Source: a virus. From it: a DNA stretch of 64,000 nucleotides. The stretch spans positions 64,001 to 128,000 of IMG/VR virus record IMGVR_UViG_3300042549_004948; one strand, given 5' to 3'. This document shows, piece by piece, positions 9,252 to 52,487 of this stretch (position 1 is its first letter; each line of letters opens with the position of its first letter). The position numbers and the translations under genes are program-made. Under the pieces are notes generated by a model, which worked only from the letters and a program-made list of their open reading frames with translations, searched no databases and had not been told where the DNA came from.

Positions 9252-9369
9252 TAGTCAGGGCCGGAATCGAACCGGGGGAAGTAACCTTACGACTCCATGA
9301 TTTTGCACCTTGATCGGTGTCCATTGGTCTCTAGGACTCGGGACCATCCCTCATTACACCCACCTGACT
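9252..9369 (-). tRNA. aberrant tRNA-like RNA (118 nt), anticodon undetermined
   Basis: Perfect acceptor AGTCAGG/CCTGACT+A, T-arm CCGG-TTCGATT-CCGG, D-stem GGTG/CACC with large insert, no canonical anticodon arm. Confidence 0.6.
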
Positions 9370-45466: not shown

Positions 45467-45481
45467 AACTGTTTATTTTAG

Positions 45482-45565
45482 TACCTAAGATGGGATTCGA
45501 ACCCATACGGGCTTTCAGCCCATTTGATTTTAAGTCAAACGCGTATACCGTTCCGCCACTAAGGT
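45482..45565 (-). tRNA. trnL: tRNA-Leu(UAA)
   Basis: Anticodon arm TTTGA-CT TAA AA-TCAAA, long variable arm GGGC-TGAAA-GCCC, GGTTCGAATCC, A73; one U-U in acceptor; no encoded CCA. Confidence 0.92.
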
Positions 45566-45571
45566 ATAAAG

Positions 45572-45727
45572 CTATCAGAGAAGGATTCGAACCTTCACGC
45601 AGTGATTCGGTAAGAGACAAAATAGCCGGCTTGTGGTCAACCCATATCCATTTACCTATTTCAAACTCTGCGCCCGCGAGACGGGCGGGTGTGTCTGCCA
45701 TACTCTAGAGTGTTTCACCATCTGATA
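45572..45727 (-). tRNA. oversized tRNA-like RNA (156 nt), anticodon GUC (Asp-like)
   Basis: Acceptor TATCAGA/TCTGATA+G, T-arm GAAGG-TTCGAAT-CCTTC, anticodon stem CCCGC/GCGGG with loop CCGTCTC, D-loop insert, about 70-nt variable arm. Confidence 0.7.
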
Positions 45728-45784: not shown

Positions 45785-45805
45785 ATATTAATTAATTTGT
45801 AAGAG

Positions 45806-45876
45806 ATGTTCCTTTAGGATTCGAACCTAAACTAAGTGGACCAAAACCACTTGTGCTACCGTTACACCAAGAAACA
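45806..45876 (-). tRNA. trnQ: tRNA-Gln(UUG)
   Basis: TGTTTCT/AGGAACA acceptor, TGGTGTAACGGTAGCAC D-arm, AGTGG-TT TTG GT-CCACT, GGTTCGAATCC. Confidence 0.93.
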
Positions 45877-45880
45877 GTGT

Positions 45881-45912
45881 AAAAAAATGGGCAGTTCAAT
45901 TAAGAACCGCCC
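45881..45912 (-). terminator. intrinsic terminator
   Basis: GGGCGGTTC-TTAATT-GAACTGCCC followed by ATTTTTTT. Confidence 0.75.
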
Positions 45913-46002
45913 TGTTAAAAGACTTAGCCTGGGGCAGAAAACGTAGGGATCTGTGCTAAATACTATTATCTATAATTATCTGTAAATTCAGATAATTTTT
46001 TG

Positions 46003-46445
46003 TGGACCTGGAGAGATTCGAACTCTCGTCTCCGATAGAGACAATAATACTAACGTATCACATGCTTAGTACTGCTTGCGCTGCACCGTACATCAGTTGT
46101 TTAATAGGTACAACTAATAAAACCTTGATAGCACGGCTTCGCCCCCTGTATACCGTGTCGTAGAATGCTTGAGGTACGCCTCAACGTAGCTAGGGAGCCA
46201 CTCATTCCCACAGTCCTTATTTAACGAGTTGATCGTGAATACTCGGAGTAGTTCTGTTCCTAGGTTACTCACCCGATGCGGACTAAGCTGCTACAGCTAG
46301 GTCGGCGCCTACGAAGTCCATAAGGTCTTCGAAGGTGAATGAAGATAATTCTTCAGCGTTTATTGTTTAGTATCTTCTAAGGCAGTATACTCAAATGCCT
46401 GCATGTAGTATTACCTCAACAACCGGATCAATTCCAGTCAGGCCC
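46003..46445 (-). ncRNA. ssrA: tmRNA
   Basis: GGGCCTG/CAGGTCC+A acceptor with G3-U70, T-arm GAGAG-TTCGAAT-CTCTC, AATAAAC-GCT resume context, tag ORF 46357-46283 ending LAVAA-stop. Confidence 0.95.
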
Positions 46446-47001: not shown

Positions 47002-48240
47002 TTATAAATTTAACTTGCTTCCTATCATAAATGAATTAAGAATTGGCAATTCTTTATTTGTGCTGATTAATACTTTAAAGTTTACGTTTACTTTAAATTT
47101 TCTAGTTAATTTAAAATCAGTAGCAAATCCAGTTAAAAACATGAGGCTCCTATCTCTAAGTTCTGTTTTGTTAGTAAAAGAATAGCTATATGGAGAACTG
47201 ATCATAAATATATCCGGGATTATGATTTTTCTTTTAAACTGTATTGGACGCATAGCAAAACATATAATTGACGGGGCTAAGCTATATTGACCTGTATTTA
47301 ATAGTGTGCTGTTAAAACTAATATTATATCCAGTGATTAATTTATCGATAGGTTGCACATAGGTATATGCAGCAAACATCATATGATTTTTAAAATCTGT
47401 AAAGTATGTATTACTAAATGTGTGTACTGCTTCTAATTGACCTACGCTATTTGTTTCATTTTTACTATATCTAGCTCCAATTGCAATTTTACTAAGGTCC
47501 ATAAATATAGTTGATGATATACCCCAACTAGACATTCCAGTAAATGATGATTGAGAAATTCCTACATTCATAGTAGGTACTATATTTTTTTGTGGAGGTT
47601 GTTCTGCAAAAGATAAATCAGCAGATACTATAACAGGATTTATTGATTGAAGTTTTTCTTTTTTGCTATCTTTCTTTTCTTCTTTCTTTTCTTCTTGTTT
47701 TTGCTCTTCTTTTTTTTCTTCACTTTTAGATTCACTCTTACTTTCACTCTTACTTTCAGTTTTAGATTCAGAAGATGTACTTTTAGATTCAGAAGATGTT
47801 GAACTAGAAGATCCGCTAGAAGATGAACTTGTAGATGGAGAAGCAGAAGGACTAGAAACAGAGGCTGATGCGCTAGATGATGCTGAACTAGAAGCGGCGC
47901 TTGAGGCGGCTGAACTTGCAGCCGATGATGCAGCCGATGATGCAGCTTGAACTGCAGATTGTGTAACTACTTGAGCAGTTTGTTGATTAACAGGACATGG
48001 CTTAGAAAATATAGACTTTATCCATAAGTCTACTGAACCAGATCTAAAATCGTTTACTGTAAATATTTTGCTCTCACTTCTAATTACAATTAGAACTCCA
48101 ATATTTGTTAGTGGAAAAGATACTGTATAAATCTTATTATCACAAGGATCAACATAGACGTTTGTAATAGTTTGGCTTTTAGCATTACCGGCTAATAATA
48201 TTAAAACTAATATTGTTAAACTTGTAATCCATGTTTTCAC
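47002..48240 (-). CDS. exported protein with Ser/Glu/Lys low-complexity linker and probable C-terminal beta-barrel
   Basis: Signal peptide, two-Cys N-domain, (AASS)n/(ESKS)n linker, amphipathic strands ending IGSKLNL. Confidence 0.75.
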   Translation of the reverse strand: MKTWITSLTILVLILLAGNAKSQTITNVYVDPCDNKIYTVSFPLTNIGVLIVIRSESKIFTVNDFRSGSVDLWIKSIFSKPCPVNQQTAQVVTQSAVQAASSAASSAASSAASSAASSSASSSASASVSSPSASPSTSSSSSGSSSSTSSESKSTSSESKTESKSESKSESKSEEKKEEQKQEEKKEEKKDSKKEKLQSINPVIVSADLSFAEQPPQKNIVPTMNVGISQSSFTGMSSWGISSTIFMDLSKIAIGARYSKNETNSVGQLEAVHTFSNTYFTDFKNHMMFAAYTYVQPIDKLITGYNISFNSTLLNTGQYSLAPSIICFAMRPIQFKRKIIIPDIFMISSPYSYSFTNKTELRDRSLMFLTGFATDFKLTRKFKVNVNFKVLISTNKELPILNSFMIGSKLNL

Positions 48241-48244
48241 TTAA

Positions 48245-48973
48245 CTAGTTTTTGAATATTGCTTTTTTAATCATTCTATCTAATATATTTGCGCATGCTA
48301 TGTCTAAAGCTTTTTTAGTAGCAATAGAAATGGTAGATTGATTAAACTTAATAGGATCTATAGAATCATCTGAAAGTAATGTTAACTCTCTAGTAGTTTT
48401 TGCTTCGCCTAATCCTGATGCACCAAAGACTATCCCTGTTTCTGCATTAGTAAAACGTACTTGTAAACCAAGTCTAGTTACCATATTATCTTTAATCCCA
48501 TCTTTTAAATTAATAGTTTCGTCTTCTGATATAGAATAGTCATAAACTTCAATAGTTACGAAGTATTCAGCTAAGTTAATTTTACCTCTGCCATCTAATT
48601 TATTCTCACTAATACCAGCTTGAGAAGCCTGGAATTGTTTTACCATTCTATTTTTAATCTCAGTTTTATCTTCTGTAAATTTAAACCTATTTAAGTTTTC
48701 TAAATATTCCATAGAAATATTAGCAACTCCTAAACCAACTCTCTTTTCTTTAAGTTCAGGATACATTTCGTATATTTCGTCAGAAATACCGCATTTTAAT
48801 ATTTGAATTGGAATCTGAGGTCCTTCGTAATCAAGGTAGGCAGATATATCTTTCTTTTTTTCAAAATCTGCTTTAAACTCTTCTGTTTTTGTAGATCCTA
48901 TTACTTGACAGCGTGCTGTTTTATTTAGTAGAAATATGTTTAATAGACATAAAATCACTATAAAGTATTTCAT
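48245..48973 (-). CDS. CsgG/HfaB-like exported protein
   Basis: Signal peptide; GLGVANI..E.L....RF...E..., AEYFV...VYDY, RLGLQVRFTNAETG.V...SG.G.A, KKAL. Confidence 0.7.
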   Translation of the reverse strand: MKYFIVILCLLNIFLLNKTARCQVIGSTKTEEFKADFEKKKDISAYLDYEGPQIPIQILKCGISDEIYEMYPELKEKRVGLGVANISMEYLENLNRFKFTEDKTEIKNRMVKQFQASQAGISENKLDGRGKINLAEYFVTIEVYDYSISEDETINLKDGIKDNMVTRLGLQVRFTNAETGIVFGASGLGEAKTTRELTLLSDDSIDPIKFNQSTISIATKKALDIACANILDRMIKKAIFKN

Positions 48974-49002
48974 ATTACGTAGTTTTATCTACGTATAAAT
49001 AT

Positions 49003-49027
49003 AAAAAAAGGGAGTATTTAGCTCCCT
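49003..49027 (-). terminator. intrinsic terminator
   Basis: AGGGAGC-TAAAT-ACTCCCT then T-run, after lipoprotein gene. Confidence 0.7.
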
Positions 49028-49035
49028 AATATTTA

Positions 49036-50238
49036 TTAATGTCCCTTATTTGGGAATCTAGTCCATCCAACTGTCCAACCAGGTTTTGACAGTGTTTCCA
49101 TTTCGTTTTTAGTATAAGACACTTCTTTATTTCCTTGACTCAATGCTTTTGTTTTCATTTCTGATGCAATTATTACAGCAGATGTAGATCTAAAATTTTG
49201 TAATGGATCAAATGCTTGTACTTCGTTATTTTCAAACTTGCTGACTCCATCTTTATAAGCTTGAGCAGTTTCATTTGACTCTATACTAAAGCCGCCTTTC
49301 ATGTAACCTAGTATCTTGGAGTTAGTTATTGTGAATTGGGTGGCTCTCCTCCACCTCAATCCTAAGTTATGATTGGTTATTGAGTTAGCATCAAAAGGGC
49401 CTACCAGAATCATCCCAATTAGCTTTGGGTGAGTAAATGGCTGCGCGCTTGATCCTGTTCCATCATTATCGCATTCTACACCATTACCAGCATCTCCATT
49501 ATCTACAAATTGAGGATCGCGTTTTGATACTCCGTTTGTTACAGTTCCAGTATATCCAAAGTCAAAGTCGAAGTCATCGTCTGCTGTAGCATACGCATAT
49601 AAGTTCTTAGGTGATACTGTGCCTCCAAAAAATTCAAAGGCATCGTCGTTAGCGTAGATAGTTTGGACATTTTCGATTGTAGTACCTGATCCTACTGCAC
49701 CTAAAGTTAATCCATTGATTTCTGAGTTTGGTAGTGCAGCTATGCCTGCATATTCTATACGAATATACTTTAATATACCACTATTATCATTATCATTCAT
49801 ACCACCATAAGGTCTACCAATACCACCTTCAATAGTTGGTTCAGCCGATCTATTTGTTTTAGCGCGGCCTAGTATTACAATACCTCCCCAATCTCCAGGA
49901 GTTTTTTCTCCTTCAGGTTTTCCTGATGTAAACACGATAGGTTTTGATACGGTTCCTTCTGCAATTATTTGTGCGCCTCTTTCAATACATAGTGCACCTT
50001 TCTCAGCAATATCACTTATTATAGTAGTGCCAGGCTGAATGATTAATCTAGCACCATCAGTTACATACACGTATCCTTTGAGTGTCCATACTTTGTCTGA
50101 TGTTAAAGTAGTTGTAGTATTAATGTTACCACTCAATGTAGTTACAGAAGGTACGTTGATAGGTTGCGCGTCGCCGCCTAGTTCTTTAGTGCAACTGAAG
50201 ATACTGGTAGCAATTAGTAATAAGAAAAGCTTTTTCAT
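49036..50238 (-). CDS. beta-helix lipoprotein (TonB-receptor partner)
   Basis: Lipobox IFS-C; GDWGGIVILG, GG.NDNDNSGILKYIRIEYAG, DDAFEFFGG, DDDFDFDFG. Confidence 0.85.
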   Translation of the reverse strand: MKKLFLLLIATSIFSCTKELGGDAQPINVPSVTTLSGNINTTTTLTSDKVWTLKGYVYVTDGARLIIQPGTTIISDIAEKGALCIERGAQIIAEGTVSKPIVFTSGKPEGEKTPGDWGGIVILGRAKTNRSAEPTIEGGIGRPYGGMNDNDNSGILKYIRIEYAGIAALPNSEINGLTLGAVGSGTTIENVQTIYANDDAFEFFGGTVSPKNLYAYATADDDFDFDFGYTGTVTNGVSKRDPQFVDNGDAGNGVECDNDGTGSSAQPFTHPKLIGMILVGPFDANSITNHNLGLRWRRATQFTITNSKILGYMKGGFSIESNETAQAYKDGVSKFENNEVQAFDPLQNFRSTSAVIIASEMKTKALSQGNKEVSYTKNEMETLSKPGWTVGWTRFPNKGH

Positions 50239-52487
50239 AAGTTTACGTTTAGTGTTAATGAGACTGTTTGTTCATTGTTTATTTTTATTAAGTCGCCTCT
50301 ATTCTTTTGATAATATCTAGAAGGCTGAGCTAATACATCTGATATGGCTAATTTTATTTCAGCTTTCTTTATCTTTCTAAGATACACAATATCTACTACG
50401 TCTCTAGAATTTTCAAATATATCTGAATAACCTTGAAAACCTACTGCAGATATTCTATCTCCGACTCTATTGTATGTTACATTTAATGTGTTAGAGTTTT
50501 TGTGTAAATTTAATCCTCCATTGATAATATAATTAGACTGACCTTGTAGTTGTCTTTTAGATCCATTTACATTTACTTGTGATGTCATGATCGATGTATT
50601 AGCGTAGAAGTCCATCCAGCAAGTCATTTTCTTTCTTACTTCTATTTCTACACCATACAAATGTGCTTGATCTGGGTTCATATAAGTTAACAGTAAGTTT
50701 GAAGGAACAGATCCATCTGCTACGATTTGTTCGATAGGTTTTATGAATTGCTTACCAAATACTCCAATAGATATTGTTTCACCGGCTTTAGGATAGTATT
50801 CCCATTTTAGATCTATATTGTAAACATCAGACTTTTCTAATTTCGAGTTACCTAGTAGTTGTGCATTTCTAATAAAGTCATAGTAAGCAAAGTTAGCTAC
50901 TTCTCTAAATTCTGGTCTTGCTAAGGTTTTGCTTATAGAAAACCTCTTCTTAATTCTGTCTACTGTTTTTGATATATTTAATGAAGGTAAAAAGTCTAAA
51001 TACTTTCTGTCTACATTTACTTTTTGCCCACTAAAATCTGCTGTGTTAACTGTGAATACATTATACTCTGTTCTTAGGCCCGTGTTTAACTTCCAGTCTC
51101 CAAACTCTCTATCGTACATGATATAACCAGTCATCAAATCGAAATCAGCTTTATATCTGTCTGTGTTGTTTGTTATTTCGTTCATCAAGTCAGAAGCTTC
51201 GTATCTAAATACTCTTGCTTGAAACTGTCTAATCTTTTTTAAATAATTAGAACCTATCTTAATATTGTTAAATTGTTTGTTAACGCTTGCATTGAAACTA
51301 TTTTCATTCATTACACTCCAAAATCTGTAAGTATCTCTCCAAGCTATGGAATAGTTTTGATTTGTTCCTAATGATTTAGTAATAGGATTTACTCTATAAT
51401 CAGGTTGATCTCTCAACATTAAGTTATAACCTATATTAAAATCAACAGTCTTGATCTTAGTATCGAATTGAGAATTAAGAACAGTCTTTACTATTTTATT
51501 ACTCGATGTACTTCTAACGTCTTGAACGTTGTCGTAGTTCTCACCGAACCTGGTAAGATAGGATTGTTCTGTTTGATGATTGAATAAAGTTTTTAGACTA
51601 TATCTATACTTTCCTATGTAAGTAATATTCAAAAGAGAATTAACAGATTCTATTTGTGTGTAAGAAGTGTCTCTGTATTTGTACGCAAGCTCTGTAGAAG
51701 ATTGATAGTCTAATCTATCGATGTAATTTAAAGTGTGAGATCTCCTTCCTGTAGAACTCAATAAAGCATTCCATTTATTTTTATTAATTCCAAATGAAAG
51801 TGATCCATTATAATTAGGGCTAGATGTAAAACTTTTTGGTTCATAAGATTGAAGCATCTTTGTGTATGCTCTTCTATCTCCTAAACTACCGACTCTAAAG
51901 TTATACGTAGAAGGAAACGCGGAAGGGAATTTAGCTCCTTGTACTAACTTGAAGCCTTTCGAAGTTGAAACTAAACCCCAACCGGTTCCTAGAGAAATAT
52001 TTAAAAAACTATTAGATACATCTTTAGTTGTTATTTGAATTAATCCGCCAGAAAAATCTCCGGGTAGATTTGCTGCAGCAGACTTTGCTACAACTATATT
52101 GTCTATTAAGTTAGAAGGAACTATATCAAAAGAGAAAGCTCTTCTATCTGGTTCTGTTGATGGAAGCAGGGTTTTATTTAGTAAGGCTGAATTGTATCTA
52201 TCCGCTAGCCCTCTAACTAAAACGAATTTATCGTTTTGAATAGTAACTCCGTTAATTCTTTTTAAAGCATCACCTACAGTTCTATCAGGAGTCTTTTTTA
52301 TATACTCTATAGATATTCCGTCTGATACTACAGAACTATTTTTGATGGAGTTAATTACCGCTAAATTACTTTCTTTCTTGGCTACTGACTTTACTGTTAT
52401 CTCTCTTAAATTTTTATTGAAAACTGTATCTTGAGAGTATGCTAAAATAGGAAACAGCGAAACAAAAATAAAAAACGACTTAATCAT
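50235..52487 (-). CDS. TonB-dependent outer-membrane receptor
   Basis: Signal peptide, plug VRGLADRYN..LPSTEPDRRAFSFDIVP, barrel SKTLARPEFRE, DLKWEYYP, YGVEIE. Confidence 0.92.
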   Translation of the reverse strand: MIKSFFIFVSLFPILAYSQDTVFNKNLREITVKSVAKKESNLAVINSIKNSSVVSDGISIEYIKKTPDRTVGDALKRINGVTIQNDKFVLVRGLADRYNSALLNKTLLPSTEPDRRAFSFDIVPSNLIDNIVVAKSAAANLPGDFSGGLIQITTKDVSNSFLNISLGTGWGLVSTSKGFKLVQGAKFPSAFPSTYNFRVGSLGDRRAYTKMLQSYEPKSFTSSPNYNGSLSFGINKNKWNALLSSTGRRSHTLNYIDRLDYQSSTELAYKYRDTSYTQIESVNSLLNITYIGKYRYSLKTLFNHQTEQSYLTRFGENYDNVQDVRSTSSNKIVKTVLNSQFDTKIKTVDFNIGYNLMLRDQPDYRVNPITKSLGTNQNYSIAWRDTYRFWSVMNENSFNASVNKQFNNIKIGSNYLKKIRQFQARVFRYEASDLMNEITNNTDRYKADFDLMTGYIMYDREFGDWKLNTGLRTEYNVFTVNTADFSGQKVNVDRKYLDFLPSLNISKTVDRIKKRFSISKTLARPEFREVANFAYYDFIRNAQLLGNSKLEKSDVYNIDLKWEYYPKAGETISIGVFGKQFIKPIEQIVADGSVPSNLLLTYMNPDQAHLYGVEIEVRKKMTCWMDFYANTSIMTSQVNVNGSKRQLQGQSNYIINGGLNLHKNSNTLNVTYNRVGDRISAVGFQGYSDIFENSRDVVDIVYLRKIKKAEIKLAISDVLAQPSRYYQKNRGDLIKINNEQTVSLTLNVNL

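Follow-up and report, generated by a model that had tools for sequence, protein, structure and literature searches.

A 156-nucleotide (nt) tRNA-shaped RNA with a giant variable arm is encoded on the minus strand, at positions 45572 to 45727, of the window analysed here, a 64,000-nt stretch of viral DNA that corresponds to positions 64,001 to 128,000 of the IMG/VR record IMGVR_UViG_3300042549_004948. The carrier record is a 162-kilobase (kb) virus, 95% complete, with a T4 gp23-type capsid gene, i.e. a T4-like lake phage. Comparison of related sequences confirms that this tRNA-shaped feature represents a real RNA gene. The phage RNA and its counterparts in Bacteroidota, which are conserved and derived from a tRNA, make up a large family that is absent from Rfam. 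Our favoured interpretation, to which we give a probability of about one half, is that these giant-armed RNAs are host-derived RNAs that would be matured like tRNAs and be of an aspartate type, without serving as the routine aspartate (Asp) decoder of the cell or of the phage.

Support for the fold comes from comparison with relatives and not from single-sequence folding, as the folding energy of the 156-nt RNA is not significant (z = -1.1). The first relatives were collected from 80 IMG/VR loci pulled in via a neighbouring nuclease gene, 24 of which contain a homologue of the 156-nt RNA with 68 to 89% identity. Analysis of 20 distinct relatives with MAFFT and RNAalifold recovered the cloverleaf, with 38 pairs, 25 of them showing compensatory changes. 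A covariance model of the family was built, which we call R1, and the window copy scores 159 bits with it. An initial annotation of the window had proposed to search other phages with a covariance model. IMG/VR was scanned with the pattern GTCTCGNGGG, followed by 70 to 100 nt and then the T loop, which yielded at least 120 matches. Eighty loci were fetched among the matches listed, and 76 of them have a strong R1 match, at 83 to 179 bits. Over 76 distinct phage members, standard pairs occupy 97.3% of the pair cells, versus 45 to 51% when the partners are slid, and double-sided changes affect 27 of the 38 pairs; the observed values were reached by none of 500 shuffles. The 76-member alignment was fitted to the R1 model and is hence biased towards it; the independent MAFFT/RNAalifold result concurs.

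All the elements of the tRNA form are found, namely a 7-base-pair (bp) acceptor stem, a D arm, a 5-bp anticodon stem with a 7-nt loop and a 5-bp T stem with its T loop. Position 1 of the RNA lies at 45727 and position 156, which is G73, at 45572. The 5' strand of the acceptor, UAUCAGA (45721-45727), forms 7 bp with the 3' strand UCUGAUA, which together with the discriminator G73 (45572) spans 45572-45579. C74 is encoded straight after G73, the rest of the CCA end being absent from the DNA of this copy. Direct reading of the window copy places U8 and G9 between the acceptor and the D arm, and A26 is present. The D arm (45691-45718) consists of a 3-bp stem, GUG/CAC, and a 22-nt loop with a G18G19-like GG. 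Its stem covaries across members, from GUG/CAC to ACG/CGU and UUG/CAA. An alternative pairing of ACCAC with GUGGU at positions 7-11 shows no covariation and was rejected in favour of that stem. The insert of the D loop is a 10-nt perfect palindrome, ACUCUAGAGU (45702-45711), already noticed in the initial annotation; once it is removed, the D arm is of the class II, tRNA-Leu-like kind. The anticodon-like arm (45673-45689) has the stem CCCGC/GCGGG and the loop CCGUCUC, with GUC at 45680-45682, C33 at 45683 and U37 at 45679. This is the register first proposed, and its fourth pair covaries as G-C, A-U, U-A or U-G. A rival register, CGCCC/GGGCG, that would give the anticodon CUC with U33 fits the window copy only and breaks in the relatives. 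The T arm, GAAGG-UUCGAAU-CCUUC, occupies 45580-45596.

The giant variable region, estimated at first at ~70 nt, comprises 76 nt (45597-45672). From its base, it is made of a closing helix GCAG/CUGC, a 3-bp helix UGA/UCA, an A-rich internal loop AAUA/GAA and a helix GGUAA(..)GGA/UCU(.)UUACC, and its helices 4 to 6 covary. A mini-hairpin, U-GGG-UUGA-CC(A)C-A with a bulged A (45632-45644), forms the apex of the arm, and it is directly followed by the perfect palindrome AGCCGGCU (45624-45631), a candidate site of RNA-RNA self-pairing. The cloverleaf stems, G73, the GUC loop with C33 and U37, and the GCAG/CTGC and GGTAA/TTACC helices of the initial annotation are confirmed in the window copy. Its GGGTTG/CAAGCC helix had to be abandoned, since covariation favours the mini-hairpin N-GGG-UWGA-CC(A)C-N' with a bulged A. 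The annotation had also reckoned with inserts devoid of conserved structure in homologues; the helices of the arm and the mini-hairpin do covary.

Standard tools do not detect this RNA. With the Rfam tRNA model RF00005, a 1.2-kb search that allowed E values up to 10 gave no match on the window copy; a 115-nt bacterial member likewise had none, and ARAGORN with default settings makes no call on any of the family members tested. Rfam yields nothing at the bacterial loci of the giant-armed RNA, and we found no description of the family by full-text literature searching. In blastn searches of the INPHARED records of cultured phages, the flanking tRNAs were matched but not the 156-nt RNA.

We also scanned prokaryotes for the motif, using one genome per species and filtering the matches with R1. 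Approximately 40 species of Bacteroidota harbour the RNA, with R1 scores of 63 to 119 bits, in Chitinophaga, Terrimonas, Dyadobacter, Spirosoma, Flectobacillus, Arcicella, Aquirufa, Algoriphagus, Cyclobacterium, Lunatibacter, Marinoscillum, Neolewinella and Saprospiraceae. None of the motif-scan matches in other phyla has an R1 match. In an even sample of the phylum analysed with strict filters, the giant-armed RNA was present in 14 of 151 Bacteroidota genomes. The bacterial copies are stand-alone genes of 115 to 212 nt, often two or three in tandem with differing arms. They are preceded by a promoter-like motif of the Bacteroidota type, TAnnTTTG, 35 to 50 nt upstream, and followed by a hairpin-U terminator, and a C always follows G73. 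The phage copies are located within tRNA clusters, or 5 to 24 nt behind the stop codon of a small open reading frame (ORF), and in many phages the next ORF begins ~100 nt beyond the giant-armed RNA. Given this position between close ORFs, the RNA would have to be excised from longer transcripts. A promoter of its own, attributed to the phage copy in the initial annotation, is not supported. We found one weak sigma-70-like match, versus 3.1 expected by chance, and in close relatives the AT-rich motif upstream of the RNA belongs to a small ORF, of which it forms the 3' end with the stop codon. The ORF 5' of the RNA in many phages (L010 3125-3343, L085 2913-3425 and relatives) codes for a conserved protein, either a 72-residue two-helix membrane-like one or a 170-residue one that ends in LAYDQ; PHROG has no match for these conserved small neighbour ORFs.

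Conservation was scored over 137 family members. The U1-A72 pair, U8, G9, the triplet G34, U35, C36 and the discriminator G73 are invariant (137/137 in each case), and U37 (136/137), C38 (135/137), the G2-C71 pair (133/137, with A2-U71 instead in the window copy) and the U3-A70 pair (132/137) are nearly so. Position 33 is U in 91 members, C in 39, including the window copy, G in 6 and A in 1. Position 10 is not conserved, each of the 61 bacterial copies having A or U there, and the variable arm ranges from 46 to 141 nt across the family. The Asp identity set formed by G34, U35, C36, G73 and C38 is present in the window copy. C38 acts as an Asp determinant in Escherichia coli. G34, U35, C36 and G73 have been described as major Asp determinants and G2-C71 as a minor one (PMC9976931). 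The invariance of positions 34 to 36 and of G73, with the near-invariance of C38, appears to match what recognition by aspartyl-tRNA synthetase (AspRS) would select. The near-invariant pyrimidine at position 37 and the freedom of position 33 are probably not what ordinary decoding would select.

With bacterial tRNA-Asp(GUC) the giant-armed RNAs share a C-U-G-U-C-N-C loop, G73 and, in most members, G2-C71, and their anticodon loop is the canonical tRNA-Asp loop of phages and hosts, CUGUCAC, with A37 changed to U. They differ from it in that U37 replaces A37, U1-A72 replaces G1-C72 and the body is of class II, not class I, and the window copy, with A2-U71, has neither of the G1-C72 and G2-C71 pairs that are strictly conserved in bacterial tRNA-Asp. 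It also lacks U33 and the purine 37 of canonical elongator loops. Class II tRNAs (Leu, Ser, Tyr; RF00005) resemble the family in their 7/5 cloverleaf and canonical T loop, in a D arm made of a 3-bp stem and an 11-nt loop of the AAAUUGGCAGA type, and in the extra arm, which emerges between the anticodon stem and the T stem. Without its insert, the D arm, ACG-AAAUUGGCAGA-CGU, is nearly that of the tRNA-Leu of the same phages. Unlike in class II tRNAs, the arm contains internal loops and branches and reaches 46 to 141 nt, versus ~13 to 25 nt, position 37 is U, position 33 varies, G73 occurs with U1-A72, and neither RF00005 nor default ARAGORN picks up the RNA.

That the RNA is a working decoding tRNA is an appreciable, if clearly minor, possibility. 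It would be either a minor tRNA-Asp isoacceptor with an oversized arm or an RNA that seryl-tRNA synthetase charges by virtue of the long arm and G73 and that inserts serine at GAY codons in the manner of allo-tRNAs, the arms of which are, as far as is known, of ordinary class II length. The intact tRNA core and T loop, the 7-nt anticodon loop, the presence of U33 in 91 of 137 members and the position inside phage tRNA clusters are what one expects of a decoder. Allo-tRNAs, which occur in bacteria and phages and have been proposed to be missense suppressors or regulatory RNAs, likewise combine G73 (or U73) with a long variable arm and with anticodons other than those of serine, GUC being among the commonest (PMC5389517). 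Nevertheless, they are defined by 8/4 or 9/3 acceptor/T stems (12-bp branch), whereas the giant-armed RNAs have 7/5 stems that both covary, and Bacteroidota are not mentioned in the allo-tRNA paper by Mukai et al. 2017 (PMC5389517). Decoding is also difficult to reconcile with U37 in 136 of 137 members, a pyrimidine at this position being very rare in elongator tRNAs, or with C, G or A at position 33 in 46 of the 137, the window copy among them. Moreover, the members tested, including the 115-nt one, escape both default ARAGORN and the Rfam tRNA model, the latter with E values allowed up to 10, and constitutive incorporation of serine at Asp codons would be harmful. Lastly, canonical tRNA-Asp genes are present in every carrier tested. 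With a UGUCAC loop and at one to three per genome, they occur in all five carrier bacterial genomes tested, and at six phage loci, several of which have near-complete tRNA sets, tRNA-Asp(gtc) is found alongside the giant-armed RNA. As position 33 is not conserved, U37 is near-invariant and the carriers tested have canonical tRNA-Asp, the view in the initial annotation that the 156-nt RNA is not an ordinary decoder is supported, though not proven.

In the interpretation that we favour, an RNA of aspartate type would combine a class II, tRNA-Leu-like body with a normal 7/5 cloverleaf, a loop copied from that of tRNA-Asp (C/U32, N33, G34-U35-C36 and C38) with U37 replacing the usual purine, an acceptor end fixed as U1-A72, G2-C71, U3-A70 and G73, and an arm that may have grown to its present 46 to 141 nt. 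It would arise from transcripts shared with adjacent tRNAs or mRNAs, be released by the enzymes that process tRNAs and have its CCA end completed. AspRS would probably bind it, and perhaps charge it, via GUC, C38 and G73. The RNA would most likely fulfil an off-ribosome or special role as a carrier, a sensor or a competitor, the conserved arm being a putative handle for a partner. Phages may have taken it from their hosts along with tRNAs and the transfer-messenger RNA (tmRNA), and they may have remodelled it by adding a D-loop hairpin and a self-complementary loop able to join two copies.

Several observations weigh against this interpretation. U33 is found in two thirds of the members, which leaves room for weak decoding, and with U8, A14, G18G19, the T loop and A15/U48 the core has the appearance of that of a fully functional tRNA. 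AspRS is a class II enzyme that approaches the tRNA from the side of the variable loop, and the giant arm may block its binding. U1-A72 takes the place of G1-C72, a pair that bacterial tRNA-Asp strictly conserves. G10 is an AspRS determinant in E. coli, and this position is A or U in all the bacterial copies. A G10-U25 pair has been named for AspRS recognition in yeast (PMC9976931). As to expression, the sole trace in RNA libraries is a 152-nt contig from a freshwater metatranscriptome that is a relative of the giant-armed RNA; it could result from DNA carry-over and is at best a weak hint.

If the proposed interpretation is true, a whole group of Bacteroidota, among them Chitinophagales, Cytophagales and relatives of Saprospiraceae, and many of their large phages keep an extra tRNA-shaped RNA that is missed by standard annotation tools. 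The invariance of its acceptor end and of its Asp-type loop would then suggest that it has a specific partner among proteins. It would represent a new, experimentally tractable case of bacterial tRNA mimicry, in which phages capture and remodel host non-coding RNAs, and the link to an amino-acid-responsive regulator described below would suggest a regulated role outside routine decoding. A covariance model for the family would fill an annotation gap in Bacteroidota and phage genomes. Extra tRNA genes devoted to off-ribosome work beside normal isoacceptors have a precedent in the non-proteinogenic tRNA-Gly of Staphylococcus, although the latter are of normal size and their partners, the Fem transferases, are known (PMC7826273).

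Analyses of the bacterial loci revealed a recurrent neighbour. An AsnC/Lrp-type regulator gene is divergent from the RNA, 136 to 306 nt upstream of it, in 23 of 40 loci. The orthologues are 45 to 99% identical and the linkage spans Chitinophagales and Cytophagales. The adjacent regulator harbours the Pfam AsnC_trans_reg and HTH domains, and its best NCBIfam model is AsnC, matched over its full length with 161 to 172 bits, the cut-off being 227. Since AsnC/Lrp-type regulators usually control their divergent neighbour, it is plausible that expression of the RNA is tied to an amino-acid signal. An extended scenario, which we consider improbable as a whole, is that an AspRS-charged RNA kept off the ribosome by U37, the free position 33 and the giant arm would serve as an amino-acid carrier or a charging-state sensor under the AsnC/Lrp regulator, and that large phages would capture it, dimerise it via the self-pairing loop and take over the pathway during infection. 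Other neighbour genes were noted at some of these loci. In Chitinophagaceae, a gene for a TrmB-type (Methyltransf_4) tRNA m7G46 methyltransferase is next downstream on the same strand, at ~100 to 125 nt (L247 5591-6301, L273 2664-3110 and L252 6457-7170), and a gene for an RluD-like pseudouridine synthase is found just upstream of the giant-armed RNA in Algoriphagus, Cyclobacterium and Lunatibacter.

Another conceivable role is that of an off-ribosome platform for asparagine (Asn) synthesis, in which AspRS would charge the RNA via GUC, GatCAB would amidate it owing to U1-A72, and the AsnC regulator would exert control. A U1-A72 pair at the acceptor end is typical of tRNA-Asn and tRNA-Gln. With the tRNA-Asn of the indirect AspRS and GatCAB pathway, the giant-armed RNAs have in common U1-A72, G73, a GUN anticodon and the presence of GatCAB in the hosts; they differ by C36 in place of U36, the giant arm and U37. 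U1-A72 promotes amidation by the bacterial GatCAB and G1-C72 blocks it (PMC1635274; PMC9976931), and the RNA agrees with this sequence rule, having the former pair and lacking the latter antideterminant. AsnC is the best model of the adjacent regulator, and GatB was found in 14 of 14 sampled carriers. We nevertheless regard such a platform as very unlikely. GatB is present in 126 of the 151 Bacteroidota genomes and hence does not discriminate, and the AsnC scores of 161 to 172 bits fall under the curated cut-off of 227 bits. All five carrier genomes tested have asnS and four of the five have AsnB-type genes, two of them with three full-length copies. In genomes with AsnA, the homologues of the regulator are not beside asnA, nor is a copy of the giant-armed RNA beside them; AsnA itself, found in 4 of 151 Bacteroidota, is too rare to inform. 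In five phage records, we detected no Asn synthase and no class IIb or AspRS-type synthetase.

The presence of the RNA in bacteria also bears on its possible role in phage defence. The initial annotation envisaged a decoy, and a decoy for, or a replacement of, tRNAs such as tRNA-Asp that host nucleases cut at G34-U35 anticodons would fit a tRNA-Asp-like loop altered at positions 33 and 37 and the occurrence of the RNA in many lytic phages. Changes at these two positions are a known means by which phage tRNAs escape anticodon nucleases. However, uninfected bacteria have this RNA, U37 included, as a chromosomal gene equipped with a promoter-like motif and a terminator of its own, and therefore the altered loop is not a phage adaptation. 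The view of the RNA as a phage invention falls with this finding, and the idea of a pure anti-defence decoy for a cellular RNA of Bacteroidota is so weakened that we give it hardly any credence.

A further suggestion of the initial annotation, a non-canonical intron, would make the RNA an intron-containing tRNA spliced to normal size. Run with its -i option, ARAGORN does call a tRNA-Lys(UUU) with a 79-nt intron, and this call is the sole indication for it. The anticodon stem of that call depends on one half of the D-loop insert, an element missing from many relatives, and the conserved covarying helices contradict the fold. In addition, no family member has a normal 4- to 5-nt variable loop, the smallest arm region being of 46 nt, and the base of the arm is conserved and covaries as an integral element of the RNA. 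To our knowledge, 79 nt would be too short for a group I intron, and bacteria are not known to possess the archaeal splicing endonuclease. We consider the chance of an intron negligible.

The apex of the arm has features of its own. The mini-hairpin is closed by a U-A pair in 34 members and by a G-C pair in 31 others. The sequence GACCAC occurs in 75 of 76 phage members and 36 of 60 bacterial members. A perfect palindrome of 6 to 12 nt directly follows the mini-hairpin in 70 of 75 phage members, with ~24 different sequences such as GCCGGC, GCGCGC, GCAUGC, GCUAGC, GUGCAC, UGUACA, CUGCAG, GCUUGCAAGC, GCCGGCCGGC and GCUUCCGGAAGC. Within a single genome such palindromes are not significant by themselves, and palindromes are slightly under-represented genome-wide; the signal lies in their positional conservation across relatives. 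Because a 6-nt palindrome is unable to fold on itself and a hairpin needs no self-complementary central bases, the palindrome may be a pairing site between two copies of the RNA. The dimerisation initiation site of human immunodeficiency virus 1 (HIV-1) is also a 6-nt self-complementary sequence with flanking purines. Some phage members have AAGCGCGCAA and one GUGCAC at this place, a likeness that comes from sequence alone in an unrelated context. The D-loop inserts are specific to phages, variable in sequence and often palindromic: 47 of the 76 phage members have a D loop longer than 13 nt, whereas the bacterial D loops, of 11 to 15 nt, are too short for a hairpin.

These features could mean that the tRNA body is a scaffold for processing or stability only, and that the arm, with its conserved A-rich internal loop, its GGGUUGACCAC hairpin and, in phages, its dimerising palindrome, is the functional part, the protein or RNA that it binds having nothing to do with aminoacylation. 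The arm-base motif and the mini-hairpin, both of them conserved and covarying, and the ~24 palindrome sequences at one fixed place are consistent with this model. So is a second tRNA-like family in the same phages, the near-constant acceptor, D and T arms of which surround a hypervariable middle of 40 to 90 nt and which shows that other RNA modules are indeed built into tRNA frames in these phages. A mere scaffold would nevertheless not need the invariant GUCU-C loop, the fixed CCCNC/GNGGG stem, U1-A72 or G73. Furthermore, conservation among the bacterial copies is lowest in the distal arm, GACCAC being absent from 24 of 60 of them, and the arm length ranges from 46 to 141 nt. We thus hold a pure scaffold to be rather unlikely.

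One copy of the second tRNA-like family lies in the window, at 9252-9369 on the minus strand, and several different copies are found per phage; the family is also present in L134, L148, L108, L147, L153, L090, L004, L034 and L043. Its frame is composed of the acceptor AGUCAGG/CCUGACU with A73, a tRNA-Leu-like D arm, GCG-GAAUGGUAGA-CGC, and the T arm ACAGG-UUCGAAU-CCUGU, the hypervariable middle standing in place of the anticodon and variable arms. Related phages harbour other odd tRNA-like genes (L036 4002-4099, L039 4012-4109 and L030 1035-1145). In the 98-nt type, a 4-bp hairpin with a GAAA tetraloop replaces the anticodon arm and the D loop has a hairpin insert, and a 111-nt gene has a D-loop insert and the loop CAGACAA. 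In L036 to L039 (e.g. L036 3846-3919), ARAGORN reports 'tRNA-???' calls with four-base anticodons (aaat, aaaa).

Among described RNAs, species 1 (rnaC) and species 2 (rnaD) of T4 are also stable small RNAs of a T4-type tRNA cluster with unexplained roles (PMC3014915, PMC9697503). In this respect rnaC, which has a T arm and an acceptor-like stem, is the closest precedent, although it has no anticodon arm of the giant-armed kind. Homology with rnaC was considered and rejected: R1 gives it 16 bits over the 3' 92 nt, inside the range of ordinary T4 tRNAs (11 to 35 bits), and although both RNAs contain the string GGAUAUGG(G)UUGA, its order with respect to the remaining parts differs between them. 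Y RNA and YrlA were likewise discarded. No TROVE (Rsr) match was obtained in the phage or in four carrier genomes, with controls responding, the ends of the giant-armed RNA form an acceptor stem, and there is no Rfam match.

In the window, the 156-nt RNA belongs to a small block of tRNA genes on the minus strand. A tRNA-Leu(UAA) gene (45481-45565) is located 6 nt downstream of it and a tRNA-Gln(UUG) gene (45805-45876) 77 nt upstream. Co-transcription with tRNA-Leu, assumed in the initial annotation, is plausible, as no terminator is present in the 6-nt spacer. A strong terminator-like hairpin with 9 pairs and a U run (45889-45912, minus strand) ends 12 nt before tRNA-Gln, and therefore the block of tRNA-Gln, giant-armed RNA and tRNA-Leu would be transcribed by read-through or from a promoter not seen. 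Further upstream on the same strand is a tmRNA gene (46000-46445; Rfam RF00023, 56 bits), without an ARAGORN call in the window. In related phages the tmRNA is called by ARAGORN, with tags that end in ADYALAA or ADYAVAA, and contigs of relatives, assembled from RNA libraries, cover the tmRNA and tRNA-Gln. Beyond it, the region 47002-52487 (minus strand) contains envelope genes of a Bacteroidota style, as judged from the translations alone. They code for a 750-residue protein resembling TonB-dependent receptors, proteins with lipoprotein signals and a 412-residue protein with long low-complexity runs of Ser, Ala and Lys-Glu.

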